Virus record (IMG/VR): IMGVR_UViG_2671180460_000005
Source of the DNA: a virus
Taxonomy: Duplodnaviria; Heunggongvirae; Uroviricota; Caudoviricetes
Direction: 5' to 3' (one strand)
DNA: 16,724 bases
Part shown: piece after piece, positions 8,825 to 15,875 of the stretch
Numbering within the stretch: position 1 is the stretch's first letter
Layout of the letters: each line of letters starts with the position of its first letter
Notes under the pieces: generated by a model
Database searches by the model: none
The model's input: the letters and a program-made list of their open reading frames with translations, nothing else
What the model was told of the DNA's origin: nothing
Position numbers and translations under genes: made by a program

Positions 8825-11800
8825 ATGGGTAAAGGTGGCAGCAAGGGGCACACTCCTCGCGAAGCGAAAGATAACCTGAAATCCACGCAGTTACTGAGCG
8901 TGATTGATGCGATCAGTGAAGGGCCGATTGAAGGACCGGTGGACGGAATGAAAAGCGTGCTGCTGAACAGTACGCCGGTGCTGGACAGTGAAGGTAAGGC
9001 CAATTTCTCCGGGGTCACGGTGGTGTTCCGTGCCGGTGAGCAGGAGCAGACTCCGCCGGAGGGTTTTGAATCCTCCGGCTCCGAGACGGTGCTGGGTACG
9101 GAAGTGAAATACGACACGCCGATCACCCGGACCATCACATCAGAAAATATCGACCGCCTGCGTTTTACGTTTGGTGTGCAGGCTCTGGTGGAAACCACGT
9201 CTCAGGGGGACCGCAATCCGTCAGAAGTGAGATTACTGGCCCAGATCCAGCGTAACGGCGCCTGGGTGACAGAAAAAGACATCACCATTAAGGGTAAAAC
9301 CACCTCGCAGTATCTGGCCTCGGTGGTGGTGGATAACCTGCCGCCGCGCCCGTTCAGTATCCGGATGCGCAGGATGACGCCTGACAGCACCACAGACCAG
9401 CTGCAGAATAAAACGCTCTGGTCGTCATACACCGAAATCATCGATGTGAAACAGGGATACCCGAACACGGCACTGGTCGGCGTACAGGTGGATTCAGAGC
9501 AGTTTGGCAGCCAGCAGGTGGGCCGTAATTACCATCTTCGTGGACGCATTCTGCAGGTACCGTCGAACTATGATCCACAGACGCGGCAGTACAGCGGTAT
9601 CTGGGACGGGACACTTAAACCGGCATACAGTAACAACATGGCCTGGTGCCTGTGGGACATGCTCACCCATCCGCGTTATGGCATGGGACAACGTCTCGGG
9701 GCAGCGGAGGTGGATAAATGGACCCTGTATGTTATCGGTCAGTACTGTGACCAGTCAGTACCGGATGGCTATGGTGGCACGGAGCCGCGTATCACCTGTA
9801 ATGCTTATCTGGCATCACAGCGTAAGGCGTGGGACGTTCTCAGTGATTTCTGTTCGGCGATGCGCTGTATGCCGGTATGGAACGGACAGACGCTGACGTT
9901 CGTGCAGGACAGACCGTCGGATAAGGTGTGGACCTATAACCGCGGCAATGTGGTGATGCCGGATGATGGCGCGCCGTTCCGTTACAGCTTCAGCGCCCTG
10001 AAAGACCGCCATAATGCCGTGGAGGTGAACTGGATTGACCCGGATAACGGCTGGGAGACGGCGACGGAGCTGGTTGAAGATACGCAGGCTATTGCCCGTT
10101 ACGGTCGTAACGTCACGAAGATGGAGGCCTTTGGCTGTACCAGTCGGGGGCAGGCACACCGCGCCGGTCTGTGGCTGATTAAAACGGAACTGCTGGAAAC
10201 GCAGACGGTGGACTTCAGCGTGGGTGCAGAAGGGCTTCGCCATGTACCGGGTGACGTCATTGAAGTCTGCGATGATGACTATGCCGGTATCAGTACCGGT
10301 GGTCGCGTGCTGGCGGTGAACAGCGAGACCCGGACGCTGACGCTTGACCGTGAAATCATGCTGCCATCCTCCGGCACCACACTGATAAGCCTGGTTGACG
10401 GAAAGGGTAATCCGGTCAGCGTGGAGGTCAGGTCCGTCACCGACGGCGTGAAGGTGAAAGTGAGCCGGATTCCTGACGGCGTTGCCGGATACAGCGTATG
10501 GGGGCTGAAGCTGCCGACGCTGCGCCAGCGCCTGTTCCGCTGCGTGAGTATCCGTGAGAACGATGACGGCACGTATGCCATCACCGCCGTGCAGCATGTA
10601 CCGGAAAAAGAGGCCATCGTGGATAACGGGGCGCACTTTGACGGCGACCAGAGCGGTACGGTGAAGGGTGTCACGCCGCCAGCGGTGCAGCACCTGACTG
10701 CCGAAGTCACCGCAGACAGCGGGGAATATCAGGTGCTGGCCCGCTGGGACACGCCGAAGGTGGTGAAGGGCGTGAGCTTCCTGCTTCGCCTGACCGTGGC
10801 AGCGGATGACGGCAGTGAACGGCTGGTCAGCACAGCCCGGACGACGGAAACCACATACCGCTTCAGGCAACTGGCGCTGGGGCATTACACGCTGACGGTC
10901 CGGGCGGTAAATGCGTGGGGGCAACAGGGCGATGCGGCGTCGGTCTCTTTCCGGATTGCCGCACCGGCTGCGCCGTCACAGATTGAGCTGACGCCAGGCT
11001 ATTTTCAGATAACGGCGGTCCCGAAACTGGCTGTATATGACCCGACAGTGCAGTTTGAGTTCTGGTTTTCGGAAACGCGGATTGCGGATATCAGGCAGGT
11101 TGAAACCACAGCCCGCTATCTTGGCACGGCGCTGTACTGGATAGCCGCCAGTATCAATATTAAGCCGGGCCATGATTATTATTTTTACGTTCGCAGTGTG
11201 AACACAGTCGGCAAATCGACATTCGTGGAGGCCGTCGGTCGGGCGAGCGATGATGCCGAAGGTTACCTGGATTTTTTCAAAGGCCTGATAACCGAATCCC
11301 ATCTCGGTAAAGAGCTGCTGGAAAAAGTCGACCTGACGGAGGATAACGCCAGCAAACTGGAGCAGTTTTCGAAAGAGTGGAAGGACGCCAACGATAAGTG
11401 GAATGCCATGTGGGGCGTCAAAATTGAGCAGACCAAAGACGGCAAACATTATGTCGCGGGTATTGGCCTCAGCATGGAGGACACGGAGGAAGGCAAACTG
11501 AGCCAGTTTCTGGTTGCCGCTAACCGTATCGCGTTTATTGACCCGGCAAACGGGAATGAAACGCCGATGTTTGTGGCGCAGGGCAATCAGATATTCATGA
11601 ATGACGTGTTCCTGAAACGCCTGACGGCCCCCACCATTACCAGCGGCGGTAATCCTCCGGCATTTTCCCTGACACCTGATGGTCGGCTGACGGCGAAAAA
11701 TGCCGATATCAGTGGTAACGTGAATGCGAACGCCGGGACGCTCAGTAATGTGACGATAGCTGAAAACTGTACGATAAACGGTACGCTGAGGGCGGAAAAA

Positions 11801-12223
11801 ATCGTCGGGGACATTGTAAAGGCGGCGAGCGCGGCTTTTCCGCGCCAGCGTGAAAGCAGTGTGGACTGGCCGTCAGGTACCCGTACTGTCACCGTGACCG
11901 ATGACCATCCTTTTGATCGCCAGATAGTGGTGCTTCCGCTGACGTTTCGCGGAAGTAAGCGTACTGTCAGCGGCAGGACAACGTATTCGATGTGTTATCT
12001 GAAAGTACTGATGAACGGTGCGGTGATTTATGATGGCGCGGCGAACGAGGCGGTACAGGTGTTCTCCCGTATTGTTGACATGCCAGCGGGTCGGGGAAAC
12101 GTGATCCTGACGTTCACGCTCACGTCCACACGGCATTCGGCAGATATTCCGCCGGATACGTTTGCCAGCGATGTGCAGGTTATGGTGATTAAGAAACAGA
12201 CGCTGGGCATCAGCGTGGTCTGA
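8825..12223 (+). CDS. J: Central tail fibre / host specificity protein, lambda gpJ-like, 1132 aa
   Basis: ATG at 8825 with GGAG (8813-8816) upstream. 1132 aa, the same length as lambda gpJ. N-terminus [18 protein letters not shown] and C-terminal roughly 250 aa (...[56 protein letters not shown]...[14 protein letters not shown]) closely resemble lambda J as I recall it. FN3-like segments in the middle. Confidence 0.95.
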
Positions 12224-12239
12224 GTGTGTTACAGAGGTT

Positions 12240-12264
12240 CGTCCGGGAACGGGCGTTTTATTAT
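12240..12264 (+). terminator. Terminator-like hairpin with T/A-rich tract after J
   Basis: CGTCCG (12240-12245), loop GGAA, CGGGCG (12250-12255) gives a 6-bp stem with one G-U pair, followed by TTTTATTAT (12256-12264). Confidence 0.45.
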
Positions 12265-12284
12265 AAAACGGTGAGAGGTGAACG

Positions 12285-12905
12285 ATGCGTAATGTGTGTA
12301 TTGCCGTTGCTGTCTTTGCCGCACTTGCGGTGACAGTCACTCCGGCCCGTGCGGAAGGTGGACAGGGTACGTTTACGGTGGGCTATTTTCAGGTGAAACC
12401 GGGTACATTGCCGTCGTTGTCGGGCGGGGATACCGGTGTGAGTCATCTGAAAGGGATTAACGTGAAGTACCGTTATGAACTGACGGACAGTGTGGGGGTG
12501 ATGGCTTCCCTGGGGTTCGCCGCGTCGAAAAAGAGCAGCACAGTGATGACCGGGGAGGATACGTTTCACTATGAGAGCCTGCGTGGACGTTATGTGAGCG
12601 TGATGGCCGGACCGGTTTTACAAATCAGTAAGCAGGTCAGTGCGTACGCCATGGCCGGAGTGGCTCACAGTCGGTGGTCCGGCAGTACAAGGGATTACCG
12701 TAAGACGGAAATCACTCCCGGGTATATGAAAGAGACGACCACCGCCAGGGACGAAAGTGCAATGCGGCATACCTCAGTGGCGTGGAGTGCAGGTATACAG
12801 ATTAATCCGGCAGCGTCCGTCGTTGTTGATATTGCTTATGAAGGCTCCGGCAGTGGCGACTGGCGTACTGACGGATTCATCGTTGGGGTCGGTTATAAAT
12901 TCTGA
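12285..12905 (+). CDS. lom: Outer-membrane beta-barrel protein of the Ail/Lom/PagC/OmpX family (lysogenic-conversion moron)
   Basis: ATG at 12285 with GAGAGGTG upstream. N-terminal signal peptide MRNVCIAVAVFAALAVTVTPARA followed by EGG. Alternating hydrophobic beta-strand pattern and C-terminal ...VGVGYKF ending in Phe, typical of small outer-membrane barrels. Same position (between J and stf) as lom in lambda. Confidence 0.9.
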   Translation: MRNVCIAVAVFAALAVTVTPARAEGGQGTFTVGYFQVKPGTLPSLSGGDTGVSHLKGINVKYRYELTDSVGVMASLGFAASKKSSTVMTGEDTFHYESLRGRYVSVMAGPVLQISKQVSAYAMAGVAHSRWSGSTRDYRKTEITPGYMKETTTARDESAMRHTSVAWSAGIQINPAASVVVDIAYEGSGSGDWRTDGFIVGVGYKF

Positions 12906-12969: not shown

Positions 12970-15294
12970 ATGGCAGTAAAGATTTCAGGAGTCCTGAAAG
13001 ACGGCACAGGAAAACCGGTACAGAACTGCACCATTCAGCTGAAAGCCAGACGTAACAGCACCACGGTGGTGATGAACACGGTGGGCTCAGAGAATCCGGA
13101 TGAGGCCGGGCGTTACAGCATGGATGTGGAGTACGGTCAGTACAGTGTCATCCTGCAGGTTGACGGTTTTCCACCATCGCACGCCGGGACCATCACCGTT
13201 TATGAAGATTCACAACCGGGGACGCTGAATGATTTTCTCTGTGCCATGACGGAGGATGATGCCCGGCCGGAGGTGCTGCGCCGTCTTGAACTGATGGTGG
13301 AAGAGGTGGCGCGTAACACGTCCGTGGTGGCACAGAGTACGGAAGACGCGAAGAAATCAGCCGGCGATGCCAGTGCATCAGCTACTCAGGTCGCGGCCCT
13401 TGTGACTGATGCAACTGACTCAGCACGCGCCGCCGGCACGTCCGCCGGGCAGGCTGCATCGTCAGCTCAGGAAGCGTCTTCCGGCGCAGAAGCGGCATCA
13501 GCAAAGGCCGCTGAAGCGGAAAAAAGTGCCGCAGCCGCAGAGTCCTCAAAAAACGCGGCGGCCACCAGTGCCGGTGCGGCGAAAACGTCAGAAACGAATG
13601 CTGCAGCGTCACAACAATCAGCCGCCACGTCTGCCTCCATCGCGACCACGAAAGCGTCAGAGGCCGCCACTTCAGCACGAGATGCGGTGGCCTCAAAAGA
13701 GGCAGCAAAATCATCAGAAACGAACGCATCATCAAGCGCCAGTAGTGCCGCTTCCTCGGCAACGGCGGCAGGAAATTCCGCGAAGGCGGCAAAAACGTCC
13801 GAGACGAATGCCAGGTCATCTGAAACAGCAGCGGAACGGAGCGCCTCTGCCGCGGCAGACGCAAAAACAGCGGCGGCGGTGAGTGCGTCAACGGCATCCA
13901 CGAAGGCGACAGAGGCTGCGGGAAGTGCAGTATCAGCATCGCAGAGCAAAAGTGCGGCAGAAGCGGCGGCAATACGTGCAGAAAATTCGGCAAAACGTGC
14001 AGAAGATATAGCTTCAGCTGTCGCGCTTGAGGATGCGGACACAACGAGAAAGGGGATAGTGCAGCTCAGCAGTGCAACCAACAGCACGTCTGAAACGCTT
14101 GCTGCAACGCCAAAGGCGGTTAAGGTGGTAATGGATGAAACGAACAGAAAAGCCCCACTGGACAGTCCGGCACTGACCGGAACGCCAACAGCACCAACCG
14201 CGCTCAGGGGAACAAACAATACCCAGATTGCGAACACCGCTTTTGTACTGGCCGCGATTGCAGACGTTATCGACGCGTCACCTGACGCACTGAATACGCT
14301 GAATGAACTGGCCGCAGCGCTCGGGAATGATCCAGATTTTGCTACCACCATGACTAACGCGCTTGCGGGTAAACAACCGAAGAATGCGACACTGACGGCG
14401 CTGGCAGGGCTTTCCACGGCGAAAAATAAATTACCGTATTTTACGGAAAATGATGCCGCCAGCCTGACTGAACTGACTCAGGTTGGCAGGGATATTCTGG
14501 CAAAAAATTCCGTTGCAGATGTTCTTGAATACCTTGGGGCCGGAGAGAATTCGGCCTTTCCGGCAGGTGCGCCGATCCCGTGGCCATCAGATATCGTTCC
14601 GTCTGGCTACGTCCTGATGCAGGGGCAGGCGTTTGACAAATCAGCCTACCCAAAACTTGCTGTCGCGTATCCATCGGGTGTGCTTCCTGATATGCGAGGC
14701 TGGACAATCAAGGGGAAACCCGCCAGCGGTCGTGCTGTATTGTCTCAGGAACAGGATGGAATTAAGTCGCACACCCACAGTGCCAGTGCATCCGGTACGG
14801 ATTTGGGGACGAAAACCACATCGTCGTTTGATTACGGGACGAAAACAACAGGCAGTTTCGATTACGGCACCAAATCGACGAATAACACGGGGGCTCATGC
14901 TCACAGTCTGAGCGGTTCAACAGGTGCCGCAGGTGCTCATGCCCACACAAGTGGTTTAAGGATGAACAGTTCTGGCTGGAGTCAGTATGGAACAGCAACC
15001 ATTACAGGAAGTTTATCCACAGTTAAAGGAACCAACACACAGGGTATTGCTTATTTATCGAAAACGGACAGTCAGGGCAACCACAGTCACTCATTGTCCG
15101 GTACAGCCGTGAGTGCCGGTGCACATGCGCATACAGTTGGTATTGGTGCGCACCAGCATCCGGTTGTTATCGGTGCTCATGCCCATTCTTTCAGTATTGG
15201 TTCACACGGACATACCATTACTGTTGACGCTGCGGGTAACGCGGAAAACACCGTTAAAAACATCGCATTTAACTATATTGTGAGGCTTGCATAA
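12970..15294 (+). CDS. stf: Side tail fibre protein; lambda Stf-like N-terminal and shaft regions, different C-terminal receptor-binding region with His-x-His repeats
   Basis: ATG at 12970 gives [26 protein letters not shown]..., which matches the lambda Stf N-terminus as I recall it; GTG at 12964 is an in-frame alternative. Long Ala/Ser/Thr-rich repeat shaft, then the conserved fibre motif [24 protein letters not shown], then ...[40 protein letters not shown]... as in P2 H-type fibres, then a C-terminal block with eight H-x-H motifs. Confidence 0.92.
13320..14040 (+). repeat. Ala/Ser/Thr-rich low-complexity repeat region encoding the Stf shaft
   Basis: About 240 codons dominated by GCN, TCN and ACN codons, with recurring units such as AKTSETNA (near 13577-13602 and 13787-13812) and SSETNASS. 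It generates long spurious ORFs in the other frames and on the minus strand. Confidence 0.8.
14770..15213 (+). repeat. His-x-His repeat array encoding the Stf distal tip
   Basis: Eight H-x-H motifs (HTH, AHAH twice, HSH, AHAH, AHQH, AHAH, HGH) embedded in Gly/Ser-rich spacers, with recurring nucleotide units GGTGCNCATGCNCA. Confidence 0.8.
14806..14886 (+). repeat. Tandem 30-nt (10-codon) repeat inside stf
   Basis: GGGACGAAAACCACATCGTCGTTTGATTAC ([10 protein letters not shown]), then GGGACGAAAACAACAGGCAGTTTCGATTAC ([10 protein letters not shown]), then the partial unit GGCACCAAATCGACGAATAAC (GTKSTNN). Confidence 0.85.
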
Positions 15295-15875
15295 TGGCAT
15301 TCAGAATGAGTGAACTACCACGGACCATAAAAATTTATAATCTGCTGGCCGGAACCAATGAATTTATTGGTGAAGGTGATGCATACATTCCACCTCATAC
15401 AGGTCTGCCAGCAAACAGTACCGATATTGCACCGCCAGATATTCCGGCTGGCTTCGTGGCTGTTTTCAACAGTGATGAGGCATCGTGGCATCTCGTTGAA
15501 GACCATCGGGGTAAAACGGTTTATGACGTGGCATCAGGGGATGCATTATTTATTTCTGAACCCGGTCCGTTACCGGAAAATGTCACCTGGTTATCCCCGG
15601 ATGGAGAGTATCAGAAGTGGAACGGTACAGCCTGGGTGAAAGATGCAGAAGCAGAAAGACTGTTCCGGATCCGGGAGGCGGAAGAAACAAAAAACAGCCT
15701 GATGCAGGTAGCCAGTGAGCATATTTCACCGCTTCAGGATGCTGCAGATCTGGAAATTGCAACGGAGGAAGAAACCTCATTGCTGGCGGCCTGGAAGAAG
15801 TATCGGGTGTTGCTGAACCGGGTTGATACATCTTTAGCGCCGGAAATTGAGTGGCCGCAGCAACCTGTCAGTTAA
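15294..15875 (+). CDS. tfa: Tail fibre assembly chaperone, Tfa-like
   Basis: ATG at 15294 overlaps the stf stop as TAATG. 193 aa. It sits directly downstream of the fibre gene, and its N-terminal half (...[29 protein letters not shown]...[14 protein letters not shown]...) resembles the lambda/T4 gp38-type Tfa family as I recall it. Confidence 0.85.

Follow-up and report, generated by a model that had tools for sequence, protein, structure and literature searches.

A mosaic tail-tip gene J with a lambda-type receptor-binding tip in a lambdoid Escherichia coli prophage

The tail gene cluster and the J gene

The stretch of DNA analysed here, a window of 16,724 nucleotides from the IMG/VR virus record IMGVR_UViG_2671180460_000005, contains a lambdoid tail gene cluster in which every gene from Z to tfa is an intact ORF. 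Gene J, encoding the tail tip or central tail fibre protein, lies on the plus strand at 8825..12223, with the stop codon ending at position 12223, and its ORF translates into 1132 aa plus stop. The product is a full-length gpJ with a C-terminal Ig_GpJ_C domain and the other five gpJ domains (FNIII-A_GpJ, Phage-tail_3, Ig_J, Ig_J_second and Phage_Tail_Tip), the same six Pfam domains as in the gpJ of the lambda prophage of E. coli K-12. Ig_GpJ_C (PF12421, Pfam E = 2.8e-73) is the receptor-binding Ig-like domain and covers aa 1001-1132 (11825..12220, plus strand), within the "specificity region" that PMC6646904 defines as aa 960-1132 of J (11702..12220, plus strand). The peptides quoted from this part of J in a preliminary description of the window are found in the translation of 8825-12223; the start it gave for the C-terminal segment, 11470, has to be moved by one base, since that frame contains stops and codon 883 begins at 11471. 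Two minus-strand ORFs antisense to J, at 11587-11892 and 11873-12340, were judged to be chance ORFs because the DNA is about 99% that of lambda, whose record shows no gene on the minus strand inside J.

Downstream of J and on the same strand lie lom (12285..12905), encoding an outer-membrane protein of the Ail/Lom type (Pfam Ail_Lom) that differs by 2 aa from K-12 lambda Lom; stf (12970..15294), encoding a side tail fibre of 774 aa and of the Ur-lambda type (Pfam phage_tail_N, Phage_fiber_2 and Collar); and tfa (15294..15875), encoding a tail fibre assembly protein of 193 aa (Pfam Caudo_TAP) that is 92.7% identical to lambda Tfa. The stf and tfa genes of Ur-lambda occupy the same place after lom. 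We also observed, 3' of tfa, a second, unrelated Stf-like gene (15916-16724) that runs off the end of the window and that lambda does not have. Over its N-terminal 140 aa the product shares 41% identity with the collar domain of Stf (phage_tail_N), its best phage match is phiP27 at 50%, and in relatives the gene encodes 474 aa (L004:17092-18516) and is followed by a DUF4376 gene (L004:18524-19087). This gene may represent an alternative side fibre set with a third specificity.

The left part of the window is of another kind. Over positions 1-6295, from FI to the tape measure gene, the DNA has either no match to lambda or an identity of 64-72%, so that FI, FII, Z, U, V, G, T and H are all non-lambda-like, and the tape measure protein has 1009 aa against a lambda H gene of 2562 nt (about 853 codons). 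From I through K and L to M, resemblance to lambda declines step by step in the upstream direction, with protein identities of 75% for I and 56% for M. Judging from its gene sequences, the element is a mosaic lambdoid E. coli prophage different from phage lambda itself; it would not be assigned to Lambdavirus lambda, because the structural region left of about 6296 is not lambda-like.

A mosaic breakpoint within J and its distribution among prophages

The J protein and its counterpart in lambda PaPa (NC_001416) are of equal length (1132 aa) and align without gaps, with 63 of 1132 residues differing; the genes are 92% identical in DNA across 100% of their length. The match to lambda gpJ is far beyond chance, as is also apparent from a phmmer comparison with the gpJ chains of PDB entries 8xcj and 8xck (E = 1.9e-159). 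The preliminary description had presented the C-terminus of J as nearly identical to that of lambda and the more N-terminal parts as more diverged, and the ungapped pairwise alignment bears out both statements: aa 883-1132 contain 5 differences from PaPa in 250 residues (98.0% identity; K954R, S965N, S970A, Y1111D and A1126T) and 4 in 250 from the lambda prophage of E. coli K-12 (KT232076), against 58 in 882 from PaPa for aa 1-882 (93.4%), a part that is still a close homolog of lambda J. Within the domain at 1001-1132, only 2 aa differ from PaPa and a single one, A1126T, from K-12 lambda. The contrast is stronger in DNA, where the last 491 nt are 99.4-99.6% identical to lambda (2-3 differences; 99.6% for K-12 lambda) and the first 2908 nt are 90.7% identical, the first 970 codons thus being 9.3% diverged from those of the K-12 prophage.

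A maximum chi-square scan of the J-to-stf region against K-12 lambda placed a breakpoint at J nt 2908, in codon 970 (11732..11733; chi2 = 216). Identity to K-12 lambda is 90.7% to the left of this junction and 98.8% over the 3562 nt to its right, the first 389 nt past it having zero differences. Within J, 270 of 2908 bases differ on the left and 2 of 491 on the right (Fisher p = 1.5e-16); the left part contains 181 codons with synonymous changes only and 60 with amino acid changes, the right part a single synonymous-only codon. Such conservation of synonymous sites is unexplainable by selection at the protein level and points to recent recombination. The high-identity block extends to about 15300 and consists of the J tip, lom and stf (~3.5 kb), after which tfa has about 92-95% identity to lambda and the similarity stops near 15860. 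To the left, codons 1-970 (8825..11732, plus strand) form a J backbone of a diverged, non-lambda lineage, with DNA identities of 90.7% to K-12 lambda and 96.6% to the C5 prophage described below. The phage thus carries the host-recognition cassette of lambda, formed by the J tip, lom and stf, on a tail backbone that has diverged. The alignments of 434-type phages to J end at J nt 2946-2967, close to the junction, so that the region around codons 970-990 is a recurrent module boundary.

Among complete E. coli genomes, the closest relative is a prophage of E. coli C5, a strain from cow, which adjoins ssrA (NZ_CP010122). Its identity across the full window is 96.6%, and its genes, the second fibre gene among them, stand in the same order. 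The two J proteins agree in all of their last 250 aa, T1126 included; 26 aa differences are found elsewhere in J and 13 in Stf. Four other cattle prophages (NS-NP030, EC11, RM8082 and N61) differ from these two in having lambda-like J backbones (96.7-98.3%) and A1126. Most relatives of the window prophage come from cattle or farm sources. Of the 5426 complete E. coli genomes searched, 98 carry lambda tip DNA; most of the tip carriers among those listed are laboratory strains of the K-12 or DE3 type, and about a dozen are non-laboratory isolates, again mostly from cattle or farm sources.

At least 23 draft contigs at NCBI encode exactly the J protein of the window, GCA_009767495.1 being one of the assemblies concerned. 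On the right-hand side their neighbourhoods are of several kinds, with smpB/ssrA, a LytS/LytTR two-component pair, NiFe hydrogenase genes or a P4-like primase element. This variety (loci L004-L009) suggests several integration sites or rearrangements, and an identical J in so many contigs with varied surroundings indicates that the element is recent and mobile. These data bear on whether the receptor of J can be deduced at all, since that deduction would be void in a defective prophage whose J no longer served in adsorption. Many E. coli lambdoid prophages are cryptic. That the cryptic state is so common among them and that the window holds only the tail half of the element would both fit a relic; nevertheless, we regard this reading as extremely unlikely, given the intact ORFs from Z to tfa, the purifying selection on J evident from the 181:60 ratio of synonymous-only to amino acid-changing codons, and the recent mobility implied by identical J proteins in the draft assemblies. 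On the last two grounds, J looks functional and mobile.

The receptor-binding tip and its predicted receptor

The distribution of tip identities was obtained by a tblastn search of aa 960-1132 against 50,697 phage records, an approach chosen because a search for homologous proteins with a 143-aa tip did not sample full-length J: it yielded only short fragments, several of which were frameshifted PaPa contaminants bearing the labels of other species. The specificity region is 97.7-98.3% identical to lambda records and at most 50.8% identical to the J of all other phages. Homologous tips were found in 256 phage records. Of these, 22 fall at 95-99% identity, all of them lambda or its laboratory derivatives, and 234 below 60%, with none in between; the best non-lambda match is phage 21 (50.8%), and phage 434 is at 41%. 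So placed, the J tip is assigned to the lambda group of tips.

The protein search also brought up fragments of lambda PaPa J (with Y1111 and A1126) that are deposited as proteins of Staphylococcus aureus, Cronobacter sakazakii and Pseudomonas aeruginosa, some with frameshifted N-termini; these most likely reflect lambda or vector contamination of assemblies. Of note, one fragment of a natural J tip from E. coli shares 78% identity with the tip of the window, with no indels and with D1111, and on this evidence can be classed as a diverged member of the lambda-type tips that the phage records lack.

For binding to LamB, the C-terminal 249 aa of lambda J suffice (Wang et al. 2000, summarised in PMC3509688), and indels at four loop hot spots of the tip (1012, 1048-49, 1077-78 and 1107) have been tied to lineage splits (PMC6646904). 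The window J, in its ungapped alignment to lambda, has no indels at any of the four. S1012 and D1107, both of which have to be altered before OmpF can be used, are wild type; the other reported host-range sites (I997, V1048, S1049, V1077, I1083 and L1127) are as in lambda. Other lambdoid J tips, such as those of phage 434, the A8 gpJ chimera and phage 21, share the Ig_GpJ_C fold, which likewise ends a conserved J backbone. Their identity in the specificity region, however, is only 41-51%, and they carry indels at the loop hot spots. The A8 gpJ tip, which uses OmpC instead of LamB (bioRxiv 10.1101/2022.09.30.509847; PDB 9wca and 9wcb), is 47% identical to the window tip and has indels around 1012, 1048-49 and 1107.

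An AlphaFold2 model of aa 960-1132 (pLDDT 83.4) has as its top Foldseek matches 8xck and 8xcj (TM 0.76-0.78, 98% identity), the lambda gpJ C-terminal fibre in its closed form without LamB and in the presence of LamB, respectively; the predicted fold thus matches the solved receptor-binding domain of gpJ. Short loops of the model at 1011-12, 1049-50, 1074-77 and 1104-12 fall on the four hot spots. The paper on the gpJ-LamB structure numbers no loop residues, and we infer from the model together with the mutational hot spots that these four loops would be L1-L4, which enter LamB.

Two of the residues that differ from PaPa lie in the domain itself. Codon 1111 (12155..12157, plus strand), Asp here and Tyr in PaPa, is in predicted receptor loop L4 (1104-1112). 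D1111 is common to the window, the K-12 lambda prophage and five wild prophages, so that Tyr1111 seems to be a change specific to the laboratory reference lambda PaPa. Codon 1126 (12200..12202, plus strand), Thr here and Ala in lambda, is part of the C-terminal tail that follows the final beta strand. The substitution is common to the window and the C5 prophage and is absent from lambda and the four other wild prophages; across 23 other natural tips that were aligned, this position is T in nearly every case ("KKxTAGISIS"), making the Ala of lambda the exception and the Thr of the window the family state. The remaining three substitutions, K954R, S965N and S970A, are in the fibre just above the receptor-binding domain. 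A deep mutational scan preprint and its supplement give no value for A1126T or for any variant at position 1111, and a literature search on A1126T and position-1111 substitutions found nothing relevant.

The tip of J tolerates little change: its fitness landscape is restrictive, and exchange of one residue can be enough to shift or abolish infectivity (bioRxiv 10.1101/2020.06.25.171868). A1126T, possibly with the changes at 954, 965 and 970, might accordingly have shifted specificity toward another LamB allele, toward irreversible binding or toward a second porin. The fixation of A1126T in the lineage of the window and C5, and its absence from lambda and the four other wild prophages, would fit such a shift, as would the reports that single J substitutions can change infectivity on LamB variants (bioRxiv 10.1101/2020.06.25.171868) and that reversible binding becomes irreversible through a single residue of LamB (PMC11101478). 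We nonetheless hold a shift to be very improbable. According to the alternating strand topology of the model, residue 1126 is predicted to sit on the fibre side of the domain, at the end opposite L1-L4; its Thr, as the family consensus, looks structurally neutral; and all hot-spot residues, S1012 and D1107 among them, are wild type.

Taken together, the identity of the tip to lambda records, its uninterrupted loops, the retention of S1012 and D1107, the fold match and the natural D1111 argue for a lambda-type, LamB-class tip, in agreement with the earlier proposal that the central fibre uses maltoporin. As the sequence criteria all place the tip in the lambda class, LamB use is a strong deduction from homology, and we consider it highly likely that J binds LamB as lambda does. 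The lamB gene of the host lies outside both the window and the other loci retrieved.

The same description had suggested that the side fibres provide a second specificity. Stf is intact, without the PaPa frameshift, and aligns without gaps with Stf of the K-12 lambda prophage, which is of the Ur-lambda type since its stf is intact (16 aa differences, 97.9% identity); a second specificity is therefore plausible on sequence grounds. Ur-lambda Stf binds OmpC and speeds adsorption but is not essential (PMC12617516), and the receptor of the side fibre here is probably also OmpC, a deduction made somewhat weaker by the two of the 16 differences that are distal in Stf, S704N and N753D.

A proposed origin and role of the host-recognition cassette

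Our current working hypothesis, which we hold with high confidence, is that the tail-tip protein J has a lambda-type Ig-like tip encoded by a mosaic gene, and that the host-recognition cassette was recently exchanged with a lambda-like phage. Codons 1-970 would stem from a lineage of J whose DNA differs from that of lambda by about 9%, and the stretch from codon 971 through lom and stf, with about 99% lambda DNA, would have been exchanged as a whole. The exchanged cassette would thus combine a LamB-binding tip, Lom and a side fibre of the Ur-lambda type, the receptor of which in lambda is OmpC. The complex of gpJ with LamB has been solved for lambda, with loops L1-L4 inserted into LamB (PMC11101478). 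If the present phage behaves likewise, its side fibres would first tether the particle to OmpC (PMC12617516), after which the J trimer at the tail tip would engage the LamB trimer, the four distal loops (L1-L4) of each domain entering its extracellular mouth. Loop insertion would then spread the base of the domains and twist the central fibre, and the tail tube would open for DNA ejection.

A further idea, which we think unlikely, is that the allele of the window and C5 lineage (T1126 with R954, N965 and A970) adapts the lambda tip to the LamB variants found in cattle-associated E. coli, for example through a change in affinity or reversibility. In that case the J tip, lom and stf would form a mobile cassette of three genes that spreads as one piece among lambdoid tails that are otherwise diverged.

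A lambda-type, LamB-binding tip is ordinary and already understood biology, and the sequence is already in public databases; the element that is new here is the mosaic breakpoint inside J at codon 970. For the most part, our results confirm an annotation, in that the receptor of the central fibre is predictable with high confidence as LamB and that of the side fibre as OmpC. They also indicate that the lambda tip is rare outside laboratory strains and that, on diverged backbones, it moves together with lom and stf in a single block that hardly varies. The locus thus provides a clean natural case of modular exchange of host-recognition genes, and the region of J around codon 970 offers a natural junction for the engineering of chimeric lambda particles.
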